NCBI GenBank assembly: GCA_040389185.1
Contig: JAZKAJ010000016.1
Coordinates: 1 to 52,433 of the forward strand
Length of the DNA stretch: 52,433 nt
Reading direction: 5' to 3'
Source of the DNA: Patescibacteria group bacterium
GTDB taxonomy: Bacteria; Patescibacteriota; Minisyncoccia; Phycocordibacterales; CAIRYW01
Below, in pieces: positions 9,911-51,141 of the stretch. Position 1 is the stretch's first letter, and the number at the start of each line of letters is the position of its first letter. The notes under the pieces were generated by a model that was not told where the DNA came from, searched no databases, and saw only the letters and a program-made list of their open reading frames with translations. A program made the translations under genes and the position numbers.

Positions 9911-10077
9911 AGAGCGAGATTCGCCCGCGACTAAATTTTTGCCGTCGCAAAAATTTGTCTGGGCACCACCTCGCAGTTTCGCAAGCTTGCGAAACATCGA
10001 TCCGGCGTTCGAATCTCACTCTCTCTACCTATAAAAATAAAAAGAAACCTGCAACTAAGCAGGTTTCTTTTTATTTT
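9911..10077 (-). repeat. Displaced tRNA-Ser(ACU) trailer element (terminator, antisense and sense tRNA 3'-end copies, GCGACGGC hairpin)
   Basis: AGAGCGAGATTCG 9911-9923 is identical to 17895-17907; GTTCGAATCTCACTCTCTCT ~10007-10026 is an inverted tRNA 3' copy; 35 nt (9928-9962) identical to 25351-25385. Confidence 0.8.
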
Positions 10078-10231
10078 GCGGAGGCTCTCGGGTTCGGACT
10101 TTTCAGTACTAAGCCCTGTAATGCTTTTCCAGTGATTTTAATAATACCACAATGAGGCATCTCGAGCAGACTAGTTTTTAAAAAGTGACAAAAGTGACAG
10201 TAGTTTAACCGTTCTCAATTTCCACTATCTT

Positions 10232-10366
10232 TTAAGATTTTTCCAGTTTGTTCCTGATCATATTTCTACAAACAGCTTCGAGATAATTCAACCTTTTTAA
10301 TATCTGTTCATCAGTACTCGTCTCATCAGACATTATTTTTCTGTACTCCTCTATCGAGATCGACAT
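10232..10366 (-). CDS. Small hypothetical protein (44 aa, from ATG at 10366)
   Basis: MSISIEEYRKIMSDETSTDEQILKRLNYLE..., protein-like composition; abuts upstream ORF. Confidence 0.55.
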   Translation of the reverse strand: MSISIEEYRKIMSDETSTDEQILKRLNYLEAVCRNMIRNKLEKS

Positions 10367-10367
10367 G

Positions 10368-10655
10368 CTAAATGAGTACAATAAGCTGAAGTATGAATCC
10401 AACAAGAAGTAGTACCCCTCCAATAACACCCCATTTTCTTTGAGAAAGGCGGTCTTGAACCTGTGGTAGTTTTAAATTTTCTTCGTCAGTACCAGACCAA
10501 CGAGAAACACCTAATCGTAATGCTTCTTTTTGAGAGATAAACAAACCTTTTGCAAAAGCGATGCTTCCTAGAAAACTTAGTGTGAGTCCAATGATGTTTA
10601 AGTACCTATCAATGCCAACCAATTGAACAGGGGGAAGATTCAAGAATCTAGGCAA
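10368..10655 (-). CDS. Small two-TM membrane protein
   Basis: LNIIGLTLSFLGSIAFA and GGVLLLVGFILQLIVLI hydrophobic helices. Confidence 0.65.
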   Translation of the reverse strand: MPRFLNLPPVQLVGIDRYLNIIGLTLSFLGSIAFAKGLFISQKEALRLGVSRWSGTDEENLKLPQVQDRLSQRKWGVIGGVLLLVGFILQLIVLI

Positions 10656-10718
10656 AGCTGACCATGGAATTACTGAAATAATTAAAGCTACATAAATGAT
10701 AATAAATATCTTCGGAAC

Positions 10719-11837
10719 ATGAAGTTCGATGTGACTGAACGACCAGTATTTAAGGAAATATTAGCTGACATTAAAAAAGGAAGATTTAATGGAATTCTTG
10801 CATGGGACGCTTCACGAATTTCTCGTAATGCTGGTGATTTAGGTTCAGTAGTAGATTTAATGGATCAAAAGCTACTTATTGAAATTAGAACATTTAGTCA
10901 GGTATTTATAAACTCACCAAATGAAAAGTTCCTCTTGATGATCCTCTGCTCACAAGCAAAATTAGAGAATGATAACAGAGTAATCAATGTTAAGAGAGGT
11001 CTTAGGACAAGATGTGAAATGGGTCTCCGCCCTGGTGTCGCCCCTACTGGGTACTTAAACTCAAAACGAACAGATGAAAAGTGTCAGGCACATATAGATC
11101 CAGAAAGAGCACCAGTCATAAAGAAAATGTTTGAAAAAGTTGCCTATTAAAAATGGAGCGGTAAGAAACTATATACATGGCTTAAATTTGAATTAAATTT
11201 TAGAACCTCGGCAGGAAAGAAACATCTAAGCCTCGGTAACATCTTTCGCATCCTCTACAATCCGTTTTATTACGGAGCCTTTGAATATCCCAAGAATTCG
11301 GGAAACTGGTATCAAGGAAAACACGAAACTATTATTACCAAAGAACTCTTTGATCAAACTATCAATCAACTTAAAAGTAATACTCTTCGAGTTGAAAACC
11401 AAGAATTTGCATTTACAAAACTCATGATCTGTGGACTTTGTGAATCTGGTATATCTGCAGCTGAAAAGTGGAAGAGACAGAAGAATGGTAATGCACATCG
11501 GTATGTTTACTATGGATGCACTAAAGCGAAAGACAAACATTGTAAGTGCGGATATATTGAAGAAAAGGAACTCATCAAACAATTTGAAAAACTGCTTGAA
11601 AATATTGATATTAGTGAGATAGAGATTAGAGAGAAAATCAAAGTTGATATTGATAAATTTATGAAACTCCAGAAGTTTATGTTAGGGACCAAAGAGAAGA
11701 TTAATATAGACACTATTGATATTAGAGGTTATACCAAGTATGTTTTGAAAGAAGGGACAGATGTAGAGAAGAGAGAGTTGTTAGGATGCTTGAAGAGTAA
11801 GATTAAACTGAAAAATAAAATAATATCAATTAATTAA
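10719..11837 (+). pseudogene. Large serine recombinase, 5'-truncated, with in-frame TAA at 11148-11150
   Basis: GILAWDASRISRN resolvase motif, recombinase domain and Cys zinc ribbon (CGLC...YYGC...C) continue in one frame across a single TAA; catalytic Y-x-R-x-S N-terminus absent. Confidence 0.85.
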
Positions 11838-14800
11838 AAGTTTTGAACAGCTTGTCTAGTCTTTGGTCCAAAATATCCTAAAGAAGGACTTAATCCTTTC
11901 GACTTTTGGAATTTAATAAGAGCAGTTTTGGTAGCTTGCCCAAAACGATTTGTCTCGTATCCTGATGATCCTGGGCCAGAAGCAGACACAGTGAACCCGA
12001 CTTTATTTAAAAACTTTTGAAGTTCCCGAACATCTTCGCCGGTCATACCTATTTTAAGATTTCTAGTAAATTTATATAATAAAGGGTTGCTTTTAATAAA
12101 GTTAACTTGATCTACCGATCCTTGATTTTGATAAATCTTTGGCCATTGTTTTTTTAAATCTTCTGCGACTTCCTTTTTCCCCATACTTATAAGATTAGAT
12201 ACTCTAGTTTGAACAGTTGTACCATTAGAATGGGTTTGTCTTGTTGAACTACTATTTGATTGGCTTGATGCGTGTCCAAAAATTGAAAAGGTTGAAAAAT
12301 TCTCTGTCTCACAAGTAATTGTTTTTGCAGAAGAATTTAAAGAACAGCCAGAAAGGGGTGTCCATGTCCCATCATCGTTTCTAAAGATTTGTAATGAAGA
12401 TTCATTAATGTTAGATACATCATCTGATGAATAATTAAATGTTACGGTTAGTCCATGATCAAAAGATGTAATAGCGGTTAAAATATCAGAAAGAGCATGC
12501 AAATCATAAACATAATCACCAACAGCCTGATAACCATCCGGACTTCCAATTGCCCCAAGTGCTACAGATTTACTAAGTTTTTTGATCTGAAAATTAGCAT
12601 TTGATCCAGAGAAAGATTCCGGCACGTGAAGTGAAACACCTTTTCCACTGGAAAGTAATGAAAGATCTCCTCCAGAATCCATTGCTACACTCTCTGCAGT
12701 TTGTGTACCTACATCCGCATCTCCGGCACAATTTCTAGTAGTGAAAGTTTTATCAGAACTGACTGTCTCATTTAGGGAAAGATCTGTGGATGATATTTGG
12801 TAATGATATGTTGCACAAGATACTAATCCTGAAATAATCACGGCATGATTTTGACTTCCTCCAGAGTTTGTTTCTGGTGTTGTAGAGCCATACGAAGTAG
12901 TAAGCCCAAATCGCACAATCGTAGCGAGAGAAGAAGCTATTTCATCCGTTGTAAAATGAATTGATGCCCCGTGTGATGAGGAGTTTGGCGTAATATCAGA
13001 GATTTCTGGTCCCAATGTATCAGGCCCAGATGTATCGTAACCAACACTGTTATCGGTACTATCAGAGGCAAAGTTTGAATTGCCATGCAGATCTAAAACT
13101 TCTCCAGCGTGAATACTTGGTATGATAGTACCCTCTCCACTTATCGAGTTAACACGAAGTATAAAATTAGTATCATCTCCAGAATTATCTATTTCCCAAG
13201 TAATACCGCTTGCGGTACCATTTTGTGTTATGTCTCCTACTACAAATGAATCAATATCTATTGCTTCATTAAATACAACATCGAATGCAATAGGTAAAGT
13301 GTCTGTTGGGTCATCTTGTCCTCCGACTTGATTGATTGTTACCGACGGCTTTGTATTATCGTTTACATTTATTGCAGGTGAATTGTGAAAATTAGGAGAA
13401 GTAGTATAAGGCGCACTAGAATTATTTGAAGCATCAACCAGAATTATACTAATCTGGATTTGTGCATTTTGAGACACATTACTTTCTCCAGAGGTAACGA
13501 TGTGTGTAATAGTATATGTACCATTATGATTATCAACAAATGTATCTGGTGTAACTCCATTAATACTAATAGTTCCCGCAGTATACCCGGAGTTATCCGC
13601 TGTAATATTTATCGTCAGGGTATCTCCTACATGCAGCGCACCTGTTGCCGGAGAGAAAGTGACACCTGAAATTATTGGGCCATCTGTATCTGGTGCGTTA
13701 TACGTCCTCGTAAGTTGTGTAGCTTGTGTACTTGTATTTCCAGAAGAGTCAGATGCGACAGCGGCAGATACATCCACAGTCACTGAACTACCAGTAGGTA
13801 AAACATCAAACGTATATGTTGTCCCACTACCAGAAAAATTTTGGATTGTACCGTTTCCTACCGTAACATCCCCAGAAATAAATCCTGTTACACTCTCACT
13901 AAATGTAACTGTGACGGGTATAGGTGAATCACTGGTTGGATTAGATGCAGTTGTTGAAAGAATGACCGTAGGTCTTGTTTTATCAAATGTCACAGAACCA
14001 GAACCTGAGGTGACTGTCCCGCCATTATTTTCTGCCGTATCATGAAAACTTGAAATGCTATAAGTAATCGTTCCTCCTATATCAGAAGTATTTGTAACAT
14101 AGGTAGCTGTAAAATTATTTCCTAAAGAATTTACAACAACAGTATCCGTTACAGGACTGCCTCCGGAGCTAAATGAGACAGTTGGTGAAGAAATGGATTC
14201 GACACTTGTAAAACTTAGAGTGACAGTATCTCCGACTTTAGCGTATGTGGTATTTGAATTACTTGATGAAAGTGAAACACTCGAAATAGTTGGTGATGTT
14301 TTATCAAATGTAACATCTGAACCAGATGTGACGGAACTTACTTGGACACCATTATTAGTTGCAAGATCAGTGAAGTTTATGGTAAATGTCACAGTACCAT
14401 TTGTATCACTTGAAGTAAGGGTAGCTGAAGCGGTAAAGTGGCTCGCATCGACACCTTGTGTAACAGTCACATTACTTCCGCTTTCAGCACCGATCGTTAC
14501 TATCGGTGGATTAATATTTTCACTAGAAACAATAATGAGAGTAATCGTATCTCCAACTTTTGCCAAAGTCTGAGTTGTGTTGCTTGAAGAAATTGTTACA
14601 GTTCCTAGAGTTGGTGCGGTACTGTCAACCGTGAGAGTGGCGGTAGACTCTCCAGAAATATTACCTGCAGCATCTAGAACAAAAAGTTTATAACTACCCG
14701 ATGTAGAAGGTGCAAGGATCGTTGTGGCTGTGCCCCCAGCTGTTGTCATCGTGCTACCTGGAGAGAAAACAGTTGTACCAGATGGAGCAAACCATACAGT

Positions 14801-17773
14801 ATTGTATATATTTGAAGATGAAGAAATGGAGACTGAAGCACCGCCTTGTTTAGTAGTATTTGAAGCGAAAACGGTATCTTGGTTTGTTGGCGCAGTCTTA
14901 TCAAAAACCACAGCACTACTATCTGTAGTAGTGGTAACTGCACTTGCGGGATTTCCAGATAAGTCAGTGGCAGTAATAGAAAATGCTACAGAGCCTTCAG
15001 TATCGCCCGATATCATCGTATATGTGGCGCTCCAATTATTATCTGATGTATTTTCAACAGAAACAGAATGTCCAGCAATTGATACAACAGGCGTTACAAT
15101 TCCTTCATTTGAAGTGAAGTTAAGAGTAATAAGATTGCCTACTTTAGCTAAAGTTGTTGAGGCGTTATTTGAGAAAATAGCCCGGCTGGTTAGTGTTGGA
15201 GGAATAGTATCAACATCTTCTGTAAGAAGTGTTTGTTCTGAAGATGTTGCAATATTTCCTGCAGTATCAGTAGAGACCACAACATAAAAATAGTTTGTAG
15301 AAGGAGAAAGTCCTGTGATACCTACAGAGTGAGTGATTACGAAAGATGCCGAAGTAGAATTTGCTGTGTACGCACCAGATACTGTACCGTAAGAAACTTT
15401 TGAGTTTGAGCTATCTCCTGTTGTGGTCCATGTAACTGTAGCTGTCACAGAAGTTGTAGTAGAAGCCACAGAAGTAATTGAAGGTGCTGTGCTATCAATT
15501 GTTACAGAAAGGCCGGAAGAGAGACTTGATATATTGCCAGCCAAGTCAGTCTGTTTGGCTTTTATAGTTTTAGTTCCCGAAATAGCAGAAGAAGTGATAG
15601 TGACAGCACTCGAAGAGCAAGTACCAGTACCAAGTGAAGTAGTATTATCTGTGCCATCAATCAAGGTTACTGTAGCTCCAGTTTCACAACTTATAATAAA
15701 ATCAGGAGTAGTGTCCGTAGTGATGTTGTCTGTCGAAGAAGAACCACTATCAGTACCTGCCGTCATATCTGGAGTGCCAGGAGCTGAAACTGTAGTATCT
15801 ATCACAATCGCCTTGTTTGCAGCCAAATTTGTAACAGGAACAAAATTCGTCATTGAATTTAGTACGGCATCTTTAATAGTGCCCGAGAGAGAATTCACCG
15901 TTAAGTCAGAAGTGGTATCTCCGACTTGTACAGTGTAATCACAAGTACCCGTTGTAGCATTCGATACCGTGAATGTACAAGTTCTATCTGTAGTACCTGT
16001 TTCTAAAGTGACTGTAACATTCCCGGTAGAAGTGACCGCTTCAGAAAATGTAACATCTATATCAATAACTTCACCGACAGTATAGTTTCCATTAGCTTTG
16101 TCTGAAGAAACATTAGTAATAATAGGAGAAGTATTGTCAAAAGTAATACCTGTTCTTGTTATTGAAGTTGCGGCATTCCCGAAAGCATCACTCCCCGCAA
16201 AAACAAAAGTATAAACAGCTCCAGAAACCAGACTGGAAACGTTTGAGGTACATCCATTTGTCGTGTCAGAAAGATTTATAGTATGAGATCCAGAATTCAA
16301 AGCTGTACCTTTAAGTGTACATGTATGCACAGTAGCATCTGCAGTACCTGAAGTACGGGTTATTGTAATAGACCCGCTCCCAAGAGCTTCACTTGTAGTA
16401 AAAGCAACAGCGGAGGACGATGTTACATTATTGATTGTAGTGGAATTTGCTGGAGTAACAGATGAAAAAATGGGAGCGGTATTATCAATTGTTATACCTG
16501 TTGCTGCAGTCGATGTTGCATAGTTACTCGAAGTATCTCTTGCAACTGCAACAATACTATAAGAAGAACCGTCCACAAATGAGGATGAATTAAAACTACT
16601 TATGAAAGGAGATACCACCTCTCCGCCGAGAAGCGTTCCATTTATATAATATTTAACACCAGCAACCGAAACATTATCCGCTGCAGTGGATGTAAGAGCC
16701 ACAGAACTCCCTTGTATAGTGGATCCGGTCGTAGGTGCGGTCAAAGTAACCGTGGGAACTGTCGTATCAATTACGTTTACGGTTGGAGAGGAATTGTCTG
16801 AAAGTGTAGTAAGTGTTGATGATTCATCTGTTCTAGACTTTATAGTAAACAAACTCGCTTCTGGTGCGCTCGGTGCAACAGCTCTACCTGCACCAGTACT
16901 ATCTCCATAAGTTACAGTAATTGTATTACCATTTACAAGACTAATAGCATTTACAACAATATTATTACCTGAAAATCCTGGCACAAAAGAACTATTACTT
17001 GCACCGATAGAAAATCCGTCTGTGTAAATAGTACTTCCCTTTACAGAGTTGTTTGTAATTTCAAAACCATAGCTTTTGACTGCTGTTCTTGCAGCTGGAA
17101 GAGAAGTGAATGTAAAGAATACGTGAGTCCAGGTATTAGCAGTAACGAGACTTCCGAGTGATAGTCTTGTTTCAATTTGGTTTGCAAGACCATCTGTGGT
17201 GGAATATTCAAATGCTAACCTACCGTTCGCTATAGCAGTGTCCGTGTAGATCCAAAAACCTACCGTAGTATACTGTGACCAATCCTGAGTGGTAGTAAGG
17301 TTATTATAAAATTTACCGCCGGGACCATCTCCACTTGGAAGGTTATTGTTGACACATTTTAATGAATTGCTGCCGGAATGATGAAATGAATCGATGGTGA
17401 GCCCTGGAGTACATGCACCACCGTTCGTAGTCCAATGATCAATCGCTTCAGCTTCATCGAACACAATACCTACAGTACCAGTCGTCGAAACCGTTGTATA
17501 TCCAGCAGTACTTGCATTCCCTTGTGGAGTACTCCATGTAGACGGAACACCTATAGAAATACCTCCACCACTCAATGTTTCTGCAGCAGTATAAGTAAAT
17601 GTGAGTTTGTTGGTTGCAGTATTTACAAGAGGAGAAGTTAGAGGAGTAACAACAACTGAGGCAGAACCTGAACCATTACTCGCATAGACAAGGCCTGTGC
17701 CAAAAAATAAAAAAAAGGATGTAATAAAACATATCATCCAATTGATTTTCATTTTTTTATAAATGTGTTTCAA
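11834..17773 (-). CDS. Giant secreted surface protein: tandem Ig-like/FN3-like domains and C-terminal peptidoglycan-binding domain
   Basis: 1979 aa, signal peptide, Ser/Thr-rich beta repeats (D-x-T-x-P-T), C-terminal LKIGMTGEDVRELQKFLN...FGQATKTALIKFQ...GYFGPKTR. Confidence 0.85.
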   Translation of the reverse strand: MKHIYKKMKINWMICFITSFFLFFGTGLVYASNGSGSASVVVTPLTSPLVNTATNKLTFTYTAAETLSGGGISIGVPSTWSTPQGNASTAGYTTVSTTGTVGIVFDEAEAIDHWTTNGGACTPGLTIDSFHHSGSNSLKCVNNNLPSGDGPGGKFYNNLTTTQDWSQYTTVGFWIYTDTAIANGRLAFEYSTTDGLANQIETRLSLGSLVTANTWTHVFFTFTSLPAARTAVKSYGFEITNNSVKGSTIYTDGFSIGASNSSFVPGFSGNNIVVNAISLVNGNTITVTYGDSTGAGRAVAPSAPEASLFTIKSRTDESSTLTTLSDNSSPTVNVIDTTVPTVTLTAPTTGSTIQGSSVALTSTAADNVSVAGVKYYINGTLLGGEVVSPFISSFNSSSFVDGSSYSIVAVARDTSSNYATSTAATGITIDNTAPIFSSVTPANSTTINNVTSSSAVAFTTSEALGSGSITITRTSGTADATVHTCTLKGTALNSGSHTINLSDTTNGCTSNVSSLVSGAVYTFVFAGSDAFGNAATSITRTGITFDNTSPIITNVSSDKANGNYTVGEVIDIDVTFSEAVTSTGNVTVTLETGTTDRTCTFTVSNATTGTCDYTVQVGDTTSDLTVNSLSGTIKDAVLNSMTNFVPVTNLAANKAIVIDTTVSAPGTPDMTAGTDSGSSSTDNITTDTTPDFIISCETGATVTLIDGTDNTTSLGTGTCSSSAVTITSSAISGTKTIKAKQTDLAGNISSLSSGLSVTIDSTAPSITSVASTTTSVTATVTWTTTGDSSNSKVSYGTVSGAYTANSTSASFVITHSVGITGLSPSTNYFYVVVSTDTAGNIATSSEQTLLTEDVDTIPPTLTSRAIFSNNASTTLAKVGNLITLNFTSNEGIVTPVVSIAGHSVSVENTSDNNWSATYTMISGDTEGSVAFSITATDLSGNPASAVTTTTDSSAVVFDKTAPTNQDTVFASNTTKQGGASVSISSSSNIYNTVWFAPSGTTVFSPGSTMTTAGGTATTILAPSTSGSYKLFVLDAAGNISGESTATLTVDSTAPTLGTVTISSSNTTQTLAKVGDTITLIIVSSENINPPIVTIGAESGSNVTVTQGVDASHFTASATLTSSDTNGTVTFTINFTDLATNNGVQVSSVTSGSDVTFDKTSPTISSVSLSSSNSNTTYAKVGDTVTLSFTSVESISSPTVSFSSGGSPVTDTVVVNSLGNNFTATYVTNTSDIGGTITYSISSFHDTAENNGGTVTSGSGSVTFDKTRPTVILSTTASNPTSDSPIPVTVTFSESVTGFISGDVTVGNGTIQNFSGSGTTYTFDVLPTGSSVTVDVSAAVASDSSGNTSTQATQLTRTYNAPDTDGPIISGVTFSPATGALHVGDTLTINITADNSGYTAGTISINGVTPDTFVDNHNGTYTITHIVTSGESNVSQNAQIQISIILVDASNNSSAPYTTSPNFHNSPAINVNDNTKPSVTINQVGGQDDPTDTLPIAFDVVFNEAIDIDSFVVGDITQNGTASGITWEIDNSGDDTNFILRVNSISGEGTIIPSIHAGEVLDLHGNSNFASDSTDNSVGYDTSGPDTLGPEISDITPNSSSHGASIHFTTDEIASSLATIVRFGLTTSYGSTTPETNSGGSQNHAVIISGLVSCATYHYQISSTDLSLNETVSSDKTFTTRNCAGDADVGTQTAESVAMDSGGDLSLLSSGKGVSLHVPESFSGSNANFQIKKLSKSVALGAIGSPDGYQAVGDYVYDLHALSDILTAITSFDHGLTVTFNYSSDDVSNINESSLQIFRNDDGTWTPLSGCSLNSSAKTITCETENFSTFSIFGHASSQSNSSSTRQTHSNGTTVQTRVSNLISMGKKEVAEDLKKQWPKIYQNQGSVDQVNFIKSNPLLYKFTRNLKIGMTGEDVRELQKFLNKVGFTVSASGPGSSGYETNRFGQATKTALIKFQKSKGLSPSLGYFGPKTRQAVQNF

Positions 17774-17886
17774 GAACTATATTATACAATATATTAATAT
17801 TGTAATACAGAGAATTCACTATTAATACTGTGAATAAATAATAAATTATTTGACTCATTTCTAACGCACCTCGAGCTAGCTGTTGT

Positions 17887-17976
17887 TGGCGGAGAGAGCG
17901 AGATTCGAACTCGCGAGACCGGTTAGGGTCCGGCGGTTTAGTAAACCGCTGATTTCAGCCACTCATCCATCTCTCC
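17887..17976 (-). tRNA. tRNA-Ser(ACU)
   Basis: Acceptor GGAGAGA/TCTCTCC, G73, encoded CCA, long variable arm; anticodon arm GCGGT-TT-ACT-AA-ACCGC. Confidence 0.88.
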
Positions 17977-17996
17977 ATATATTCACTTTGTTCAAA

Positions 17997-18101
17997 TGGA
18001 GCCCGCTTACGCGGTTTGATGGATTCGCGGCTCGACGCTTTAGCTATCGCGTCGACTCGAGAGAAAGCAGTTTCTCTCTCGTTCATCTCATCCATCTCTC
18101 C
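17997..18101 (-). ncRNA. Candidate structured RNA beginning with the tRNA-Ser 5' end
   Basis: 21-nt direct repeat (17962-17982 = 18087-18107); multiple hairpins; GGAG/CTCC closing stem ending in CCA. Confidence 0.45.
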
Positions 18102-18184
18102 ATATATACTATACGAGAGACAATATATCCTATTTTACGGATTTAGTATATAGAATGAGAGCGGACGTGCACAAAGTATCCAAA

Positions 18185-18712: not shown

Positions 18713-18755
18713 AATTCTTATTTGCTTTAATGTATAAAAATGATATCCTATATCA

Positions 18756-18778: not shown

Positions 18779-18796
18779 ATAAAAAATATAGCAACA

Positions 18797-25323: not shown

Positions 25324-25518
25324 TGGCGGAGATGGAGGGAATTTCGACCTCGACTAAATTTTTGCCGTCGCAAAAATTTGTCTGGTCACCGGCTCGAATT
25401 TTTTGTTACTACAAAAAATATACTGCGCCGTTCGAATCCCCCACGCAAGTGTGTTTAGCACTTGCTCATTTCCACACAACAAAAATGGCGCCCTTAAAGG
25501 CGCTCATATTTGTAAGTG
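25324..25518 (-). repeat. tRNA-Ser(GCU) trailer element
   Basis: Terminator-like hairpin, antisense 3'-end copy, shared hairpins, then sense copy TCCCTCCATCTCCGCCA. Confidence 0.8.
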
Positions 25519-25607
25519 CGGAGATGGAGGGATTCGAACCCTCGGTACCCTTTAAAAGGTACGCCTCTTTAGCAAAGAGGTAGATTAAACCACTCTCCCA
25601 CATCTCC
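25519..25607 (-). tRNA. tRNA-Ser(GCU)
   Basis: GGAGATG/CATCTCC acceptor, G73, CCTCT-TT-GCT-AA-AGAGG anticodon arm, long variable arm; CCA not encoded. Confidence 0.93.
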
Positions 25608-32598: not shown

Positions 32599-32675
32599 GC
32601 GCGTGTAGCTCAGTTGGTTAGAGCACAAAGCTTATACCTTTGGGGTCCATGGTTCGAGTCCATGCATGCGCACCA
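32599..32675 (+). tRNA. tRNA-Ile(UAU)
   Basis: GCGCGTG/CATGCGC acceptor, A73, CCA; CAAAG-CT-TAT-AC-CTTTG anticodon arm; canonical D and T arms. Confidence 0.9.
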
Positions 32676-33095
32676 AACATAAAAACTCCCTTAGTTGGGA
32701 GTTTTTATGTTTGGTGCGGGGCGCAGGTATATTTCTTGTAGCAACAAGAAATACCGAGCCGGGGTCGAGGAATTTTACAAGCGACGGCGAGTAAAATATC
32801 CGTGACCACAAAGTGCGAGCTGGGCCGCGACGGCGCGAGAAGGGGTGAGCTCGGGATCGGGACCCGAGCGCAAGACCTTTTGAGATAAAATTGGTTCGAC
32901 ATTATTTCCTTATGAGTTTACGAATTAGGAAATAAGAAGTACTCTTGTGGTGTAAGAAAATTTTACCCAAAAGGTGTACTGCTCCTGTAAGGAGGCGACA
33001 TTTTTGCGACGGCAAAAATTTATTTGTGACCACGAATTTAAAAAATACCTGCATATTATACCCGCACGAGCAGACTTAGTAACTTCTGACCACAG
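32676..33095 (+). repeat. tRNA-Ile trailer (terminator, antisense 3' end, stacked palindromic modules)
   Basis: CGCACCAAACATAAAAACTCCC / GGGAGTTTTTATGTTTGGTGCG stem; modules shared with the 9911, 25324, 37791 and 50998 elements. Confidence 0.75.
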
Positions 33096-37398: not shown

Positions 37399-37790
37399 GG
37401 GGATGACAGGCATAGACATGTAGATCCTTCATTAATGTGCGCAATCGAGTATCCTAAAACCTCGTAAAACTTATAGGAAACTCAAGTGCAAACGCACGAA
37501 AAGTTGTTTCTCCATATTTTGGAGCAAACGATTTTGCTTTCGCAACAGCTCGAGCCTAGCTCGCTGAAGCTTTAAGCCATCTGACTTCTTTGCTCTCTCT
37601 GGAAGAAGCTCAGGTGTAATACTCAGAGGATAGGATAGGGGCATTCCCGTCCCCTATCCGAAACTTGGGATAGTTGTATATGTGTTCTGCTTTTCTAAAA
37701 GCATATACAGCGAAACCAAAAGAGAAGATACATTGCGTAGACTCATTTCTGAAATTTATATGCACGGGGGTTCGATTCCGCCCATCTCCA
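37399..37790 (+). ncRNA. ssrA: tmRNA; predicted tag ANARKVVSPYFGANDFAFATARA* (37488-37559)
   Basis: GGGGATG/CATCTCC acceptor with G3-U70, A73, T-loop GTTCGATTC, internal GCA-initiated tag frame. Confidence 0.92.
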
Positions 37791-37992
37791 CAATCACAAA
37801 AATCCGCTTCACTTTTTTTTAGTGAAGCGATTTTTGTTTGTGGAGATGGAGCAATGTGTCAGTACACATTGCGTGAGAAATCGAAAGACGAAGCATGTCG
37901 TTTTGCGACAGCGAGTCGGGGTCGAGAGTACTTAGTCCGCGCAGTGTGTACTCACACGAGCAGACTTAGTAACTCGTGACCAATTCCGCCCC
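37791..37992 (+). repeat. tmRNA trailer element
   Basis: Hairpin, antisense TGTGGAGATGG, module CACGAGCAGACTTAGTAACT identical to 33065-33084, ends ATTCCGCCC (sense T-arm copy). Confidence 0.75.
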
Positions 37993-38135
37993 GCTTTTTT
38001 ACAATAACTTTTTATTGAGACATGTGAAAGTTAGAACCATTTACAAATAAATATTTTAATGTATATTAATGTTCAAGTAAACGCTCTTTGAACCTTTCAG
38101 GAACAAAAGCGTTGGACACAAACTCAATCCTACCC

Positions 38136-41737: not shown

Positions 41738-41739
41738 GG

Positions 41740-42630: not shown

Positions 42631-42631
42631 A

Positions 42632-43570: not shown

Positions 43571-43576
43571 TTAAAA

Positions 43577-44920: not shown

Positions 44921-45074
44921 AAATATTTATAAGATTAATTTTGGGATAGATCCAAGATTATGTTATAGTATATTAACATAAAGCTTCAGTATACGGAATC
45001 GGCAGATAAATAAGAACATATTTAAACACAACCTCAAAAAGAGGTTATTTATATTTAGAAATCAAACGTTTTTC

Positions 45075-46232
45075 ATGAAAGAAAAGAAAAAGATCATTTT
45101 TGTAATAACTAAGTCTGTCTGGGGTGGAGCAGGACGCTATGTGTTTGACCTCGCAAAGGCATTTCATGCTAAGGGATACGACGTAAAAGTTGCTATGGGA
45201 GGCAATGGACTTTTGGCAAAACGACTACAAGAAGCACAAATTCATACTATAGAAATCCCAGGGCTCGCACGAGATATTGCCGTCACAAATGAGTTCAAAG
45301 CATTTCTTTTTCTTATTAAACTTTTTAGAAAAGAAAAACCTGACATCATTCACCTCAATAGCTCAAAAGCAGGACTTGGAGCACTCGCTGGGCGACTGGC
45401 CGGCGTGAGAAAAATCGTTTTTACTCTCCATGGACTCGCATTAAATGAAGATCGACCATGGTGGCAAAAAATAATTATTACAGAGATCTACCGTATTACC
45501 ATACATCTTTGTCACATCACGATAGCAGTTTCAAATGCCGTCTCTAATCAACTCACCAAAAGACTACCGAGGGCTAAGAAAAAAATCACCGTCATTCATA
45601 ATGGTGTATCAATTGAGCACCTCTTCCCAAGAACGGAAGCCAAAGAAAAACTTATCGATCTTATTCGTGAGCAAGGAAAATCCTCTGACCTTCAGATTGC
45701 ATCACTCTTTATCGGTAATGTTGCCGAACTTCACTCTATTAAGGGACAAACATATCTTCTTGAAGGGTTTCGCGAGGCACTCAGCGATTCCGCCCTCCCC
45801 CTCTATCTATTTATTATGGGTGAGGGAGAGGAACGATCACATCTGGAGGAAAAGATAAAAGAACTTAGACTTGAAGGCCACGTATTTCTATGTGGTCATG
45901 TAAAAAATGCAATACACTATCTAAAGGCGTTCGACATATTTATCCTTCCTTCTCTCTCCGAGGCTTTACCATATGCCATAGGCGAAGCTGGATGTGCCAG
46001 TCTTCCGGTGATTGCATCAGCTGTCGGAGGTATCCCAGAAGTAATTGAAGATGGTGAAAACGGTATACTTATAAAACCAAAATCAATAACCGATATCACA
46101 GATGCAATTTTAGAGCTCGTATTTGACCCTGTTATGAGAAAAACTCTAGGCAGTAACCTCCATAAAAAAATAAGTGAGGAATTCTCTATCCAGAAAATGG
46201 TGGAAGAGACCGAAAAGCTATATCGAAAATAA
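45075..46232 (+). CDS. Glycosyltransferase family 4
   Basis: WGGAGRY, KGQ, PSLSEALPYAIGEA, VGGIPEVI. Confidence 0.93.
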   Translation: MKEKKKIIFVITKSVWGGAGRYVFDLAKAFHAKGYDVKVAMGGNGLLAKRLQEAQIHTIEIPGLARDIAVTNEFKAFLFLIKLFRKEKPDIIHLNSSKAGLGALAGRLAGVRKIVFTLHGLALNEDRPWWQKIIITEIYRITIHLCHITIAVSNAVSNQLTKRLPRAKKKITVIHNGVSIEHLFPRTEAKEKLIDLIREQGKSSDLQIASLFIGNVAELHSIKGQTYLLEGFREALSDSALPLYLFIMGEGEERSHLEEKIKELRLEGHVFLCGHVKNAIHYLKAFDIFILPSLSEALPYAIGEAGCASLPVIASAVGGIPEVIEDGENGILIKPKSITDITDAILELVFDPVMRKTLGSNLHKKISEEFSIQKMVEETEKLYRK

Positions 46233-46289
46233 TAATCGATCAACAATTTTCTCTGTATATTCATAATCAAATTATGATATAATCTTTTT

Positions 46290-46580
46290 ATGTCCCTCCA
46301 ATTTGAAGATCAAAATAATTTGATTATAAAACGGAATCCCTATTCCCAAAATTACGGATATATCACCTCTCTTATATTTAAATTTCACCTTGCCAAAAGT
46401 GAAAAATCAGCGAACAGAATGCTTATCATAATCGCGAGTATTGCCATCCTCCTCGCGTTAGTCTTTGCTGGTTACAATATATATAAACTAAACAAACCCG
46501 TTAAAGTAAAATACAATGTCTCACAGGATGTTTTCAAAAAATTACCTCAAAATATTCAAATTAAAATACTCACCGAATAA
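46290..46580 (+). CDS. Small single-TM protein preceding the pilin gene
   Basis: One TM; abuts pilin ATG; TGnTATAAT 6 nt upstream. Confidence 0.7.
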   Translation: MSLQFEDQNNLIIKRNPYSQNYGYITSLIFKFHLAKSEKSANRMLIIIASIAILLALVFAGYNIYKLNKPVKVKYNVSQDVFKKLPQNIQIKILTE

Positions 46581-48164
46581 ATGAGCAAGATTATAAAAAC
46601 AAAAAGAAATTTAGGATTTACTTTGATTGAGCTTATGGTTGTTGTTGCAATAGTTGCACTGCTTGCAAGTATTGTTATGGTGTCTCTCAGCACTGTTCGT
46701 GATAGAGCAAAGGATGCAAAGACACAGACTGAATTTCATTCGATTCAACTAGCACTCGAAAGTTATAATTCAAATCATGGAGGATATCCAAATCCAAACA
46801 GCGACTCTACGCCAACGCCATACTGTATCGGAGCTACAGACTGCTTATTTGCAGGACTTCCTATTACTACACAATTCCCTGATGTAGACGATACTGTCTC
46901 TAAAAATCGATCAAATCTTGCATCTGCAGTGCAACTTTTTCCTTCATATACCAATAGCATTTCTTACTCCGATTCCGGAGGAAGAGAAAATAAAGGCTAT
47001 ATATATATTTCATGCGGTAACGGAGAATCAATATGCCCCGATGATACTGCCGTAATTGCCTACCCTACCACATCCGCAGTCAAATTTGTGAATGTGGGCA
47101 CATTTGATGTAGCCGTCTGCGGACTCGCACAATGCCAAGATAATTATGGACATAATTGTGGCAATGGTTCTGAAGACTGTTCTAATTTCTCAAATGATTC
47201 AGAATCTTGTGCCTATGATCCAAACGGAACTAGAACTGAAGTGGGTGATAAATGTATCTGTGATGGTACAAATAATTGTGCTTCGTATTGCAGTACTGAC
47301 AACACTTCATGCAACTATGACGGAAACGGAACAAATCCAACATGTGATTATAGTTGCCAGAACACAACATGTAATGATTCCAATGCATGCAATAATGGAT
47401 CAAGTGGTGCATGTGATTATAATTGTAATTGCAGTACTGATACTACAGCATGTAACTATAATTCATCAGGTACAGGGACTTGTGATTATAGTTGCCAAAC
47501 TATAACCTGTAACGATATCAATGCATGCAATAACGGATCGAGTGGTGCCTGCGATTATAGCTGTAAATGTAACTCTGACGGAAATGCCTGCAACTACAGT
47601 CAATACGGTACTGGTGGTTGTGAATATACAAGTTGTCACTCATATTCTTGCCAAGGAACACCTAATTGCGGTGGAGATTTATCAACCTGCGGAAATGTGG
47701 CTGGGTGTTACTGGGGTGGCGGATCATCAGATTCTTGTTCAGGCACACCTAATTGTAACGGGGATTCTTCTACTTGTGGAAATGTAAGCGGATGTAGTTG
47801 GGGTGGCGGAACTGCAGGATATTGTTCTGGTGTGCCCAATATCTCATGTACTGGTGATGAAAATACATGCAATGATGTTTCTGGTTGTAATTGGGACGGA
47901 TACTCTTGTAACTTAACATTGTCATGTGATGGTGATAGCTCTAGTTGTGGAATGACCTCCGGATGCAGTTGGCAAAGTGGTTCAAGTGACTATTGTTCAG
48001 GTAATCCTTACGGCAGTTGTAATGGAGATTCTTCTTCATGTGGAAATCAGAGTGGATGCAGTTGGGGAGGAGGAAGTCCTGATTACTGCACAGGATCACC
48101 TTCTGACTCTTGTAATGGTGATGCTTCTAATTGTAGTAATAGAAGTGGGTGTAGTTGGCAATAG
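46581..48164 (+). CDS. Type IV pilin-like protein with long Cys-rich repeat C-terminus
   Basis: Class III signal G|FTLIELMVVVAIVALLASIV; ~350 aa of Cys/Gly/Ser/Asn repeats. Confidence 0.88.
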   Translation: MSKIIKTKRNLGFTLIELMVVVAIVALLASIVMVSLSTVRDRAKDAKTQTEFHSIQLALESYNSNHGGYPNPNSDSTPTPYCIGATDCLFAGLPITTQFPDVDDTVSKNRSNLASAVQLFPSYTNSISYSDSGGRENKGYIYISCGNGESICPDDTAVIAYPTTSAVKFVNVGTFDVAVCGLAQCQDNYGHNCGNGSEDCSNFSNDSESCAYDPNGTRTEVGDKCICDGTNNCASYCSTDNTSCNYDGNGTNPTCDYSCQNTTCNDSNACNNGSSGACDYNCNCSTDTTACNYNSSGTGTCDYSCQTITCNDINACNNGSSGACDYSCKCNSDGNACNYSQYGTGGCEYTSCHSYSCQGTPNCGGDLSTCGNVAGCYWGGGSSDSCSGTPNCNGDSSTCGNVSGCSWGGGTAGYCSGVPNISCTGDENTCNDVSGCNWDGYSCNLTLSCDGDSSSCGMTSGCSWQSGSSDYCSGNPYGSCNGDSSSCGNQSGCSWGGGSPDYCTGSPSDSCNGDASNCSNRSGCSWQ

Positions 48165-48189
48165 CTTATCTTAAAGAATAAAACCATAT

Positions 48190-48239
48190 ACAAAAGACAA
48201 AAACTCGCTGCAATATTGCAGCGAGTTTTTGTCTTTTGT
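48190..48239. terminator. Perfect 50-bp palindrome; bidirectional terminator
   Basis: ACAAAAGACAAAAACTCGCTGCAAT|ATTGCAGCGAGTTTTTGTCTTTTGT between convergent genes. Confidence 0.85.
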
Positions 48240-48245
48240 GATTAA

Positions 48246-49376
48246 CTACATTCCCAAGAATTCATTCTTGATCAGATCTCTATGTGCCTCTCTCCTGTAG
48301 CGGCGCATTCCCATAAGTATCCCGAGCGCAGTAAAAGAAATAAGTAAATGCGATCCGCCGTAGCTTACAAACGGAAGCGGAATTCCTGTAACCGGCATCA
48401 CTCCCATATTCATACCAACATTGATGATAAAATGCCCAATGAACATTATTGCAACTCCGGAAGCAAAAAGTATTTCAAAATTGGTCTCCCCTTTTTGAGC
48501 ATTATCCATAATACGAAATATCAAAAGTCCAAATGATCCTATAAGAAAAAGTACCCCGATAAATCCCCATTCTTCAGCGAATGCAGCAAAGATAAAGTCC
48601 GTTTCATATTCAGGAAGAAAGTTTAGTCGAGATTGAGTTCCATATCCAATCCCTTTTCCAAGGAATGCTCCAGATCCTACAGCAATAGTTGACTGATACG
48701 AGTTGTATCCTGCTCCACGCACATCTGCAAGTGGATTTAAGAATGTCTTGATACGGTTCTTTTGATAATCTTTAAATACATAGACCCAAAGCCCTGCGAA
48801 TGTCACCGCACCAATAAGTACCACTGTGAATAGATGCTTCTTTGAAATACCTGCAAGAAGAATCATTCCAAACCAAATAAAAAAAAGAATGATTCCGAGT
48901 CCCAAATCTGGCTGCAACATCACCAAGAAAAAGAGTCCGAATGCGTAAAGACCAGACACAAAAATATGTTTTATATTCCCTATCTCAACATGCCTTTTTG
49001 AAAAGTATTTTGAAAGCACCAAAATAAGTGCGAGTTTTGCAAAGTCTGCCGGCTGAAAAGAAAAGAAACCAAAATCGATCCAGCTTTTTGCCCCCTTGAT
49101 AGTTCGTCCTACAAGAAGCACCAAAACAAGAACTGACACTGCAGTGAGATATACTGCGACGACGGGTCCGGTCTTTCGAAAGAATCTAAAATCAACAAAG
49201 CTCAAAATAAAAAAAATAACAAATGAGACACAGATCCAAAGTAGCTGTTTTGAAAACACATTACTCTCTCCTGTAAATGAATACATAGTAACAAGCCCAC
49301 CCGTTACAAGAGGAATAATTGAACCCACAAGAATCCAGTCCATTGAATGAAATGCCTTTGATATTTTTTGAACCAC
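48246..49376 (-). CDS. rodA: SEDS peptidoglycan glycosyltransferase RodA
   Basis: GAKSWI, FQPADFAK, LQPDLG, LPEYETDFIF, LPFVSYGGS. Confidence 0.9.
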   Translation of the reverse strand: MVQKISKAFHSMDWILVGSIIPLVTGGLVTMYSFTGESNVFSKQLLWICVSFVIFFILSFVDFRFFRKTGPVVAVYLTAVSVLVLVLLVGRTIKGAKSWIDFGFFSFQPADFAKLALILVLSKYFSKRHVEIGNIKHIFVSGLYAFGLFFLVMLQPDLGLGIILFFIWFGMILLAGISKKHLFTVVLIGAVTFAGLWVYVFKDYQKNRIKTFLNPLADVRGAGYNSYQSTIAVGSGAFLGKGIGYGTQSRLNFLPEYETDFIFAAFAEEWGFIGVLFLIGSFGLLIFRIMDNAQKGETNFEILFASGVAIMFIGHFIINVGMNMGVMPVTGIPLPFVSYGGSHLLISFTALGILMGMRRYRREAHRDLIKNEFLGM

Positions 49377-49391
49377 AGTTTTTTTGTTTAT

Positions 49392-50162
49392 TTACCAGTC
49401 TCTCGGTACCGCTCTTGGAATAATATCTATCTTTGAGACATCGAAATCAAATGTGTAGTTCCAAGTAAATGTCACACTAGCCTTATTATTCGGAGAAATA
49501 TAATCAACATTTGTAGATGACGATTCATGAGCATTCCCTTCTGCATCATATACCACAGCGATCACTTCAAGGTTTTTGAGTGGATATACTTCATTATTTA
49601 GAATATCAGCAGTTACTCTTGATCGTGTATCTACCGTCTGATTTAAAACATTATTAACTCTAATATCAGGATCCTTGAACTGTCCTTTCTCCCATTGTAT
49701 TGAACTATCATCTATCTCAAATGTAATCTTTGAAGCTTCTCTGTTTCCTGTGAGAATTGAATGTTCAAATATTGGGAATATTCTGCCTGGCGGAGCGAAT
49801 GTTGTGCCAGGTACTTCAAAGAGAAGCACATTATTTGCGTCGTAGACTTTGAATATATAATTAATACTTTTTGAATAGACGTTTTGATTTGGATTTTCAA
49901 CAAGGGCTAAAGCACTATAGGCTCCTGGTCCCGCTTTAAATAAACGACTATACACAACAATAGGTGGTCGAGATTCGAGTGGACAAAGGAGCGCACAGAC
50001 ACCACCACAATCAACCCCTTTTTCATCTTGATTTTGAATTTGATCAAAACAAGTAGGAGCTCTATTTAAAAATTTTTCATAGACAATTACCGCAAACACA
50101 GCCAAGATGACCGTCCACATAATACCAAGAATCATAAATTTTCTTCTTTTGCCCCAGTTCAT
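49392..50162 (-). CDS. Membrane-anchored hypothetical protein with short Cys motif and Ig-like repeats
   Basis: TM, CFDQIQNQDEKGVDCGGVC, two F/V-x-V-Y-D beta domains. Confidence 0.8.
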   Translation of the reverse strand: MNWGKRRKFMILGIMWTVILAVFAVIVYEKFLNRAPTCFDQIQNQDEKGVDCGGVCALLCPLESRPPIVVYSRLFKAGPGAYSALALVENPNQNVYSKSINYIFKVYDANNVLLFEVPGTTFAPPGRIFPIFEHSILTGNREASKITFEIDDSSIQWEKGQFKDPDIRVNNVLNQTVDTRSRVTADILNNEVYPLKNLEVIAVVYDAEGNAHESSSTNVDYISPNNKASVTFTWNYTFDFDVSKIDIIPRAVPRDW

Positions 50163-50283
50163 CCCGTTTCGAAGCAGGTCGCGATCACTCGCTTGTGCTT
50201 AAATTAAGTTTAAATTTTTTTAATAATATTATGTATATAATCTCGCTTGAAGACTCTATCGTGACCGCGGCTTCGAACGGGAT
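50161..50283. mobile_element. Second CCCGTT-terminus MITE-like element
   Basis: ATCCCGTTTCGAAGC ... GCTTCGAACGGGAT termini, AT-rich core. Confidence 0.65.
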
Positions 50284-50321
50284 TCATTTCCATTAGTACT
50301 AAGTATAACATCAAGAAAGAT

Positions 50322-50356
50322 AAACAAAAAACATCCCTTGCGAGATGTTTTTGTTT
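50322..50356 (-). terminator. Terminator of the tRNA cluster
   Basis: AAAAACATC / GATGTTTTT stem with T tail. Confidence 0.65.
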
Positions 50357-50419
50357 TGAAATTTTGGATGTGGACACGAACGAATTCGTGTCGCCATAAA
50401 TCCAAACACAACTTGTGTT

Positions 50420-50495
50420 TGGTACCCGGGGTAGGATTCGAACCTACGACATACTGCTTACGAGTCAGCCGCTCTACCAACTGAGCTACCCAGGC
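50420..50495 (-). tRNA. tRNA-Thr(CGU) with A31-G39 mismatch
   Basis: GCCTGGG/CCGGGT acceptor region, GCTGA-CT-CGT-AA-GCAGT anticodon arm, encoded CCA. Confidence 0.85.
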
Positions 50496-50514
50496 AAAAT
50501 GAACATTCTGAAAG

Positions 50515-50587
50515 TGCTCTCCAAGGGATTCGAACCCCTAACCACTCCCTTGCAGGCGAGTTGTGTTACCGTTACAACCAGAAGAGC
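50515..50587 (-). tRNA. Aberrant tRNA-like gene (GCA/Cys-like anticodon, A73)
   Basis: Good acceptor (GCTCTTC/GGAGAGC) and T arm; irregular D and anticodon stems. Confidence 0.5.
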
Positions 50588-50607
50588 TTTTCAGAAAATT
50601 TCTAACG

Positions 50608-50811
50608 TGGACTCGAGAGGATTCGAACCTCCGACCTTTGACCTAAAACCGCCAGCCTTCGCGCAAGTTTGCACCTCACTGCGCCGTGAAGCAAACAGGA
50701 GAACTTGTGTCCCCGAAGGACATTATGAAGGGTGCCTCCCTCACCTACCGACTAACGATCCTATTGTCTTTTTGAGACAATCAACGCTCTAACACACTGA
50801 GCTACGAGCCC
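50608..50811 (-). tRNA. tRNA (probably Lys, UUU) with 130-nt insertion at 50649-50778
   Basis: GGGCTCG/CGAGTCC acceptor, A73, GCTC/GAGC D stem, TTGAT/GTCAA anticodon stem, intact T arm; removing the insert gives loop TT-TTT-AG. Confidence 0.75.
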
Positions 50812-50868
50812 ATTTAGAAAATGGAGAACTTTCTCCACATCCAAAATTTCAAATGACTTTATAACGGC

Positions 50869-50896
50869 AGTATACTCTTTTGGATTTGGAATGCAA
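50869..50896 (-). promoter_or_regulatory. Sigma70-type promoter for the tRNA cluster
   Basis: TTGCAT-N16-TATACT on minus strand. Confidence 0.6.
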
Positions 50897-50997
50897 GAGT
50901 ATAAAATTCAAAATATTAAGAATATGATTACCTACTTTTTCCTTACAGGAACAGTACACCTTTTCGATTTTTATTTCGCATAGCTCATAAAAATCTG

Positions 50998-51141
50998 AAA
51001 AGGTCTTGCACTCGGGGCCCCTGCCCCGAGCTCACCTCCATAGAGAGGTCTCTATGTTCGGGGAAAGTAGGTATTATCAGCACAATTACAGATAAAGAAA
51101 AAAGCCGCCAAAAGGCGACTTTTTTCTTTATTAAAAACTTT
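50998..51141 (-). repeat. 5S rRNA trailer (terminator, antisense 5S 3' copy, shared palindrome)
   Basis: 51050-51085 is an inverted copy of the 5S 3' end; 50998-51036 matches the reverse complement of 32844-32880. Confidence 0.75.

Follow-up and report, generated by a model that had tools for sequence, protein, structure and literature searches.

How does a gene come to be followed by an inverted copy of its own 3′ end, together with hairpins that recur behind other genes? The question is raised by contig JAZKAJ010000016.1 of a Patescibacteria group bacterium, whose entire length of 52,433 nucleotides (nt) is called the window here (C16 in our numbering). The contig belongs to a genome of 997 kb in 29 contigs, 95% complete (G000). 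A preliminary description, made from the letters of the window alone, reported 'trailers' at two serine tRNA genes, tRNA-Ser(ACU) and tRNA-Ser(GCU), a tRNA-Ile gene, the transfer-messenger RNA (tmRNA) gene and the 5S ribosomal RNA (rRNA) gene. All five elements, labelled A to E below, exist and share modules. They are one family of gene-less cassettes made of a few constant hairpin modules, and each cassette sits in a sense-antisense-sense 'accordion' derived from the 3′ end of the preceding gene. The explanation that we favour, with a probability of about one half, is that these are mobile or recombining gene-less DNA cassettes, which possibly act as a folded single strand.

Anatomy of the five elements

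Reading the five stretches confirmed the layout proposed for them: RNA 3′ end, terminator hairpin, antisense copy, shared modules and often a sense copy. The coordinates of the parts (Table 1) were read by eye and can be off by 1–2 bases. Along the RNA gene, a terminator-like hairpin is followed by the antisense of the acceptor 3′ strand, often by a small hairpin (H), then by the antisense of the T arm, by at least one constant module and by a sense copy. Hairpin H falls exactly between the acceptor and T-arm parts of the antisense copy, and the sense copy starts in the T loop and ends at the end of the gene. The constant hairpin modules were named H, G, X, Y, P and Z-K. The units are 150–420 nt long and contain no genes.

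The shared modules were recovered by a repeat search and by blastn-short. The repeat search found direct repeats between elements A and B (D5/D7, 9912-9979 with 25335-25402) and between C and D (D16, 33059-33092 with 37949-37982), and an inverted repeat between C and E (I7, 32859-32886 with 50993-51020); I11, I12/I13 and I22 were likewise recovered. In blastn-short 9928-9967 and 25351-25390 were 97.5% identical over 40 nt. A covariance model (R1) matched element E at 50939-51004.

Two of the five assignments had to be modified. Element A (9870-10099) had been described at 9911-10077 as the trailer that directly follows tRNA-Ser(ACU), whereas the gene is actually 7.8 kb off, behind an inserted island (Table 1). 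The arms of the element match tRNA-Ser(ACU) best of the 37 stable RNAs of the genome, which upholds the assignment, though not the adjacency. In element C the antisense copy of tRNA-Ile is present, but it is just 7 nt long (32712-32718) and forms the outer part of a perfect 22-bp terminator palindrome (I22). Nor does every RNA gene have a trailer, as had been supposed: in the window tRNA-Thr(CGU), the tRNA at 50514-50587 and tRNA-Ser(ACU) have none adjoining.

Elements follow stable-RNA genes throughout the genome

We counted 37 stable-RNA genes in G000: 33 tRNA genes called by ARAGORN, the tmRNA and 5S genes, and two that were recognised beside elements, an insert-bearing tRNA and a partial tRNA-Asp. 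By eye, 21 of the 37 are directly followed by an element, and five more have a matching copy elsewhere. The association was quantified with clusters, defined as at least two different module motifs within 160 nt. Of 32 such clusters, 17 start on the strand of a stable RNA and no more than 150 nt behind its 3′ end, against a chance of 0.29% per cluster (binomial p about 3e-35). The modules are thus tied to RNA 3′ ends and not scattered.

Antisense matches to the neighbouring RNA exceed chance as well. Among 23 module instances next to an RNA, the adjacent RNA is the best sense-copy match of the 37 candidates in 13. With strict cut-offs applied to 35 trailers, an antisense acceptor (at least 8/9) was detected in 11, an antisense T-arm piece (at least 10/12) in 15 and a sense copy (at least 12/16) in 9; these counts are conservative because the T-loop part cross-matches other tRNAs. 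The geometry of the arms is constant, with positions near +45, +78 and +155 to +230. In elements situated away from a tRNA the arms still indicate the expected RNA in five of six cases, and three of these five sit 8–11 kb from their tRNA, beyond an island with a serine recombinase gene.

Origin of the arms

The presence of CCA was assessed in 34 sense copies with at least 12/14 matches. CCA follows the discriminator in only three of them, and in two of these the gene itself has CCA. The tails of the sense copies track the gene's own 3′ flank. The direct repeat has its start in the T loop, at a median of 4 nt (maximum 10) upstream of the 14-nt core, and its median end lies 4 nt beyond the tRNA end. 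In 6 of 33 cases it extends at least 10 nt (up to 70 nt) past the tRNA, sometimes including the terminator; these long repeats are stacked whole units. The unusual T loop of tRNA-Asp is reproduced in its arms. Judged by these sequence comparisons, the arms are copies of genomic DNA, not of mature CCA-tailed tRNA.

The rarity of CCA and the tails that follow the flank do not fit a retro-copy of the mature tRNA end, whether reverse-transcribed or of a primer-binding-site type. The sole reverse transcriptase gene of G000 (contig C14, 29560-33380; locus L108) is accompanied by a Schlafen-like helicase with an S24 peptidase domain and by a NUDIX hydrolase, a gene group that looks like a defence-type retroelement. 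Reverse transcriptase was rejected as the source of the elements on account of this location and of the nature of the arms.

Turnover and exchange of modules

The trailers were compared with those of congeners. The tRNA-Ile(UAU) gene lacks a trailer in all four congeners examined, and in one of them the gene itself is 99% identical. In the nearest relative (G007), with a flanking gene 83% identical to its counterpart in G000, 22 tRNAs could be compared: modules are present in both genomes at ten, in G000 only at five, in G007 only at three and in neither at four. Just three of the ten tRNAs with modules in both genomes carry the same module string. Terminator, antisense arm and hairpin H are orthologous at tRNA-Val(UAC), but the two genomes continue with modules of different types. 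In one genome the trailer of tRNA-Thr(UGU) has an additional unit, inserted between module P and the antisense arm. The spacer between tRNA-Cys and tRNA-Leu is about 140 nt longer in G000, and G007 keeps just short antisense and sense pieces there. The trailer of tRNA-Ser(GCU) behaves differently: tRNA and trailer are 94.6% identical over 296 nt to the positional orthologue in G007, and the trailer alone is about 97% identical (hand count).

The modules of one genome resemble each other. In G000 and G007, 11 of 15 Z-K copies are nearest to a copy at another tRNA of the same genome. The Z-K module behind tRNA-Gly(GCC) in G000 is 94% like that of tRNA-Ser(UGA) in the same genome and 81% like that of tRNA-Gly(GCC) in G007. 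We dropped compensatory evolution in place as an explanation of the tRNA-Gly(GCC) trailer, and did not count its change as compensatory, because replacement of the module by a paralogue is more likely.

Units are also nested. The segment 32886-32967 in the tRNA-Ile trailer is replaced by short loops in other metagenome copies of Z. Z loops of three genomes harbour a further small insert, whose copies share an end motif: at 32895-32960 of the window, in the tRNA-Leu(UAA) trailer of G007 (L072) and at locus L022.

In three metagenomic DNA runs the depth over module segments is 4–10 times that of the flanks, and contigs break there. The same three runs gave no trustworthy joint that skips an element at its own locus.

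In summary, the arms remain tied to their locus, whereas modules are exchanged among the loci of a genome. Congeneric species differ in which genes are occupied and by which module types, and units nest and stack. That occupancy varies among close relatives speaks against the trailer being essential at each tRNA.

Structure of the modules

An alignment of 25 Z-K sequences was examined for pairing. Standard pairs occupy 93.4% of the cells, and 17 of 20 pairs have changed on both sides. None of 500 shuffles reached the observed values, and slid registers drop to 36–59% paired. The stems thus covary, and the pattern is one of selection on structure. Part of the K stem may come from the target copy, so that its pairing does not count as independent evidence in every case.

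The modules fold better on the tRNA-sense strand, in 48 of 51 cases for Z-K, 18 of 19 for X, all seven for G-X, 13 of 17 for P and four of six for Y (with two ties). This bias does not discriminate between RNA and single-stranded DNA. The trailers of the window gave no Rfam match at the gathering score or at E values up to 5, and five loci in the spacer behind the gene of ribosomal protein L11 (rplK) gave none either. Neither an Rfam family nor a known insertion-sequence end was found to match the modules.

Distribution in the order and behind rplK

The Z-K covariance model was run on 151 genomes drawn evenly from the order. It matched in 90 of them, with 1–33 copies each and 21 in G000. An exact 20-base Z-K pattern occurs at 44 places in 185,579 species genomes, all of them Patescibacteria-type metagenome-assembled genomes. 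For 14 of the 44, a tRNA is called on the strand of the pattern and ends no more than 353 nt before it.

The restriction to stable RNAs that the preliminary description had assumed does not hold. Eleven of the 44 places are in the spacer after rplK (L015, L019, L021, L026, L029, L035, L037, L039, L042, L055 and L056), with the L11 reading frame recurring in nine loci, and the rplK gene of G000 itself is trailed by a module (contig C11, 83148-83760). The accordion is seen here too: in all eight loci that could be parsed the last codons reappear in antisense behind the stop codon, and in four of the eight the gene end clearly reappears in sense behind the module. In many Parcubacteria-type genomes Z-K lies in the rplK-rplA spacer in the mRNA sense, where a regulator of the L1 type would be expected. 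Z-K was considered as a binding site of ribosomal protein L1 with its home in this spacer, and the idea of such a home was rejected: none of 20 places from low-copy genomes is at rplK. In these low-copy genomes, 11 of the 15 places at which the K motif was found again lie behind a same-strand tRNA.

The genes that recur around the 44 database loci are housekeeping genes only (NusG, L11, YraN-like), and no recombinase recurs among the neighbours of these loci.

Islands, recombinases and other features of the window

The coordinates of the elements, of their cognate genes and of the island that separates element A from its tRNA are collected in Table 1.

Table 1. Stable-RNA genes, parts of elements A to E and the tRNA-Ser(ACU) island in the window
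Feature	Position	Strand	Basis or remark
Element A, decayed tRNA-like 3′ end upstream of terminator	10078-10099	-	read from sequence
Element A, terminator-like hairpin	10033-10077		
Element A, antisense tRNA-Ser(ACU) T arm and acceptor 3′ strand	10007-10030	-	I16, 82% complementary to 17883-17910
Element A, module G (junction motif and variable hairpin)	9966-10006	-	
Element A, module Y (long hairpin rich in A/T, with a conserved half-motif on either side)	9921-9965	-	D5/D7; blastn-short
Element A, sense copy 1; K hairpin; weak sense copy 2	9906-9920; 9886-9905; 9870-9885	-	best match Ser(ACU)
Island between tRNA-Ser(ACU) and its trailer	10100-17886		7.8 kb
Broken large serine recombinase, pieces	10719-11150; 11424-11837	+	Pfam Resolvase, Zn_ribbon_recom
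Surface-type protein gene, 1979 amino acids	11834-17773	-	Pfam Big_12/13, PG_binding_1 (Ig-like, peptidoglycan-binding)
tRNA-Ser(ACU)	17887-17976	-	ARAGORN, Rfam; cognate gene of displaced element A
Element B, sense T arm and acceptor end	25324-25343	-	score 17 against 13 for next RNA
Element B, module Y; module G	25344-25389; 25390-25429	-	repeat search, blastn-short
Element B, antisense T arm; hairpin H; antisense acceptor	25430-25444; 25445-25465; 25466-25477	-	T piece 11/12
Element B, terminator hairpin	25478-25517		
tRNA-Ser(GCU)	25518-25607	-	ARAGORN, Rfam
tRNA-Ile(UAU)	32599-32675	+	ARAGORN, Rfam
Element C, terminator hairpin, stem continuing into tRNA end, with 7-nt antisense piece (32712-32718)	32676-32718		I22: 22 nt, 100% complementary
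Element C, module G; module X	32719-32762; 32761-32809	+	92% like copies at tRNA-Leu(GAG) and tRNA-Tyr (other contigs); fold
Element C, module P; module Z with nested insert of about 65 nt; K hairpin	32844-32875; 32876-32975; 32976-32994	+	I7, I11
Element C, Y-like hairpin; X-variant end	32995-33033; 33034-33093	+	I12/I13, D16
tmRNA gene	37399-37793	+	Rfam RF00023, 109 bits
Element D, terminator; antisense acceptor; hairpin H; antisense T arm	37794-37839; 37840-37851; 37852-37871; 37872-37885	+	acceptor piece 9/9
Element D, G-like module; X variant; short sense copy	37886-37919; 37920-37981; 37982-37994	+	D16, fold
Element E, sense 5S end; K hairpin; module Z; module P	50926-50939; 50939-50957; 50958-51003; 51004-51035	-	sense score 13 against 7
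Element E, small hairpin; antisense 5S 3′ end; spacer and terminator	51036-51059; 51060-51083; 51085-51142	-	12/12
5S rRNA gene	51143-51250	-	Rfam RF00001

The other three serine recombinase genes of G000 lie in islands of 10–11 kb that are convergent with tRNA-Lys, tRNA-Trp and tRNA-Glu(UUC). Beyond two of these islands the cognate trailer is clear; beyond the tRNA-Glu(UUC) island it is doubtful or ambiguous. The genome has a single tyrosine recombinase, far from any element. A transposase (searched as Y1 and TnpB), reverse transcriptase or integrase linked to the elements, which the preliminary description had proposed to look for, was not found.

Several other RNA genes have unusual properties. 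The tRNA at 50514-50587 (- strand) has an irregular anticodon loop; ARAGORN assigns no amino acid to it and Rfam gives just 35.5 bits. Ile(UAU) and Ser(ACU) are unusual anticodons. At 50608-50815 (- strand) there is a tRNA-like gene, called neither by ARAGORN nor by Rfam, which is apparently split by an insert of about 140 nt between its D-arm and T-arm sides; a second uncalled tRNA with an insert is located near 55316-55500 of contig C5. The 23S rRNA gene contains a group I intron-like stretch at 51713-51969 (- strand; 38 bits with a gathering score of 50), and the 23S match spans 1043 nt for 535 model positions. The part of the 23S with the L1 stalk is missing from the assembly.

Two further kinds of repeats are present. 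A separate family of about 150 nt (76% identity), which has inverted partners, occupies 3110-3258 and 8134-8282; related pieces are at 3093-3147, 8289-8324 and 44931-44976. Tandem repeats of 87–141 nt, about 71–74% alike, at 47264-47813 within the open reading frame 46581-48164 look like units of a cysteine-rich protein.

Discussion

The preliminary description had offered, as one interpretation, a mobile element that copies the 3′ end of its target on insertion. That proposal is partly supported: it fits the turnover of modules, the similarity of paralogues, the arms of genomic origin and the use of rplK. The other interpretation offered there, a host system (3′-processing guide, antisense control or decoy), may apply as well, but with occupancy so variable among close relatives it would hardly be essential for each tRNA. 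The order gene end, terminator, antisense arm, modules and again gene end, which is sometimes repeated, has its simplest account in the integration of a small circle. A unit made of gene end, terminator, antisense arm and modules would behave like such a circle, integrated by recombination within the gene end. An antisense arm would be superfluous for a double-stranded site and suggests instead a site built from a single folded strand, in which the antisense and sense arms would pair and produce a duplex copy of the target. We place about half of the weight of the mobile-cassette explanation on this folded-strand mechanism. No element-specific enzyme was found, so the work would fall to a host function, with three candidates: the one recombinase of the Xer type, template switching at hairpins, or DNA uptake followed by homologous recombination.

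A more far-reaching proposal can be put forward only tentatively. It takes the elements for a cassette system with neither genes nor a recombinase of its own, which would land at the 3′ end of almost any stable-RNA gene and of some protein genes, obtain its site-specific arms by copying the target in both orientations and move as a folded strand by means of host functions (Xer, DNA uptake with recombination, hairpin-primed synthesis); alternatively, the units may be processed into tRNA-ended RNAs that have their own role.

If host-driven gene-less cassettes are indeed what we see, they would represent a new way for DNA to be mobile, a target-copying insertion that needs no enzyme of its own. 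Few mobile elements are known in the ultra-small Patescibacteria, and here one family flanks most stable-RNA genes. Mobility would also account for the breaking of assemblies of these organisms at tRNA genes. If the units are RNAs, they would constitute a large unexplored class of structured RNAs linked to tRNAs. Either way, the elements are a convenient marker for recombination and gene flow in uncultured lineages, and they give false signals to programs that look for tRNAs, islands or repeats.

Several results weigh against mobile cassettes. The first group concerns the lack of a linked enzyme. Serine recombinase was tried as the mobiliser and rejected: it is present in 12 of 20 high-copy and in 14 of 20 zero-copy genomes. 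An extra tyrosine integrase did not emerge either, as all 40 of these genomes have an Xer-like recombinase, most of them exactly one, whatever the copy number. Y1 transposase (PF01797) was not found in G000, in a search that did not extend to other transposase families, and TnpB was dismissed when its sole domain match turned out to be PriA. The second group concerns movement itself. Neither an excised form nor a circle nor an exact pair of empty and filled sites at one locus was seen, and the cases of presence and absence are without conserved flanks on both sides, the Cys/Leu spacer excepted. The 94.6% identity of tRNA-Ser(GCU) and its trailer next to neighbouring genes of about 83% could mean function and not recent transfer. 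The third group concerns the structure. Strand asymmetry and covariation fit a transcribed RNA just as well, G-U pairs exceed A-C mismatches just modestly (alignment A1), and the asymmetry in folding energy may partly stem from base composition. The copies compared are also related to each other, and the counts are not independent.

That the elements are functional structured RNAs is unlikely, but it is the alternative that we take most seriously. Such RNAs would be made in the direction of the tRNA, by read-through or as a precursor; the paired arms would form a tRNA-like acceptor/T-stem helix recognised by processing enzymes, and the modules would be the working part, for example protein-binding or regulatory. 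The better folding of the tRNA-sense strand, the strong covariation and the 94.6% conservation of tRNA-Ser(GCU) with its trailer over 296 nt between congeners all agree with this. So does the module in the mRNA sense between rplK and rplA, the usual place of ribosomal-protein regulators, and the sense copy retains the gene's own 3′ flank, so that the same 3′ processing could apply. On the other hand, a canonical terminator hairpin with a T run separates the tRNA from the element, and the arms at rplK are not tRNA-like. Occupancy and module type vary between congeners, to the point that the tRNA-Ile trailer is absent in all four relatives, and modules are copied between loci. Copies 8–11 kb from their tRNA remain intact, and Rfam families do not match.

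We consider it rather improbable that the accordions arose with no dedicated mobility at all, by template switching at hairpins that copies the flank in inverted orientation, and by gene conversion through the shared T-loop sequence that shuffles the modules. No enzyme would be required for arms that match any preceding sequence, whether tRNA, tmRNA, 5S, rplK or the odd T loop, and an element-specific enzyme was indeed not found. In keeping with it, perfect palindromes connect the tRNA end, across the terminator, with the antisense copy (I22), and the module boundaries lie at the T-loop sequence common to all tRNAs. Against this, the arm boundaries show great regularity (both copies, antisense and sense, end in the T loop), and whole units including the terminator are stacked in tandem. 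Moreover, near-identical modules occur in many genomes of the whole order and at high depth in the community, which calls for spread between genomes and not for local slippage alone.

It is very improbable that the trailers are scars or attachment-site remnants of islands integrated at tRNA 3′ ends by serine or tyrosine integrases, with the modules as arm-type sites. Such integrations do leave a direct repeat that starts in the T loop and reaches the tRNA end, and the four serine-recombinase islands of G000 are at tRNA 3′ ends. However, these islands lie between the tRNA and an already complete trailer, which means that the trailer was there first. The presence of serine recombinase is unrelated to copy number (12/20 against 14/20), high-copy genomes are without an extra tyrosine integrase, about 60% of the stable-RNA genes of a 1-Mb genome would need the same few kinds of scar, and an antisense copy is unexpected from an attachment-site scar.

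Least probable by our estimate are guide RNAs for an RNA-guided enzyme that reads both target strands, of the IS110 bridge RNA or TIGR-Tas type: a constant scaffold with target-specific segments of both polarities would suit such guides, and TIGR-Tas systems are placed in phages and parasitic bacteria, with a mention of Parcubacteria, in passages of the article concerned (PMC12045711), but the two 'guides' are mutually complementary and would pair in cis, they are copies of 15–25 nt of one segment and not adjacent half-sites, the anatomy shows neither an IS110-like array nor a TIGR-like array of short units (Tas and IS110 proteins were not searched for), and TnpB was not found.

Comparison with known systems

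A full-text literature search (supplements were outside its scope) found no description of this family, in line with what the preliminary description had supposed. Mobile or recombining cassettes of the kind favoured here can be set beside several known systems.

Integron attC sites are recombination sites formed from a folded single DNA strand (PMC5027507, PMC4792948). The CTX-phage attP(+) hairpin is a site of this kind. The likenesses are that two inverted segments pair in one strand into a duplex site, here the arms that flank the modules; that structure is conserved above sequence and a single strand is preferred for folding; and that units are stacked beside a fixed site, with a variable centre between paired ends. 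In place of the conserved core and inverse-core boxes of attC, the paired ends here reproduce some 20 nt of whichever gene is the local target, and no two loci have the same ends. The units are gene-less, in contrast to integron cassettes, and the arrangement of integron integrase, attI and promoter is absent, with just a housekeeping-type Xer per genome. An attC consensus was not seen either, though no search aimed at it was made.

Integrative elements that enter the T loop or 3′ end of tRNA and tmRNA genes give rise to attL/attR direct repeats. As with attL/attR, the gene end is rebuilt and the direct repeat starts in the T loop and stops shortly beyond the tRNA end; tmRNA is a target in both, and true islands of that kind occur in G000. 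The DNA bounded by the repeats here is unlike that of such elements: it consists of 150–420 nt of hairpins with no trace of a gene and no integrase. There is also an additional inverted copy of the same segment, the ends of 5S rRNA and of a protein gene are used, and about 60% of the stable-RNA genes are occupied.

Repetitive extragenic palindromic (REP) sequences with their composite forms, BIME and REPIN, and bacterial miniature inverted-repeat transposable elements (MITEs) have constant ends and varying targets. Like them, the present elements are short and without genes, form hairpins, occur in many copies between genes, often at the 3′ ends of these, and nest. In the present family, by contrast, the constant part is the interior, and each locus has ends of its own, copied from the neighbouring gene; a short fixed target-site duplication is absent, and the RAYT/Y1 transposase was not found in G000. 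With Y1 not found and PriA as the only match to the TnpB domain, the elements also differ from IS200/IS605 derivatives (PATE).

Conserved palindromic DNA beside tRNA genes has a parallel in Neurospora, where GC-rich palindromes are said to flank mitochondrial tRNA genes, as Yin, Heckman and RajBhandary reportedly described in 1981. There a single constant palindrome is reportedly involved, in place of copies of the end of each tRNA.

Inverted repeats of the target flank the insertions of invertron-type linear plasmids in fungal mitochondrial DNA, and the relevant part of one article attributes them to panhandle replication intermediates (PMC1864894). As characterised in the same part, these plasmids differ from the present elements in being kilobases long, protein-primed and mitochondrial, with polymerase genes and very long repeats, and in not being tied to gene 3′ ends (PMC1864894). 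To the extent that this source describes them, invertron plasmids are the only precedent that we found for inverted copies of the target at an insertion.

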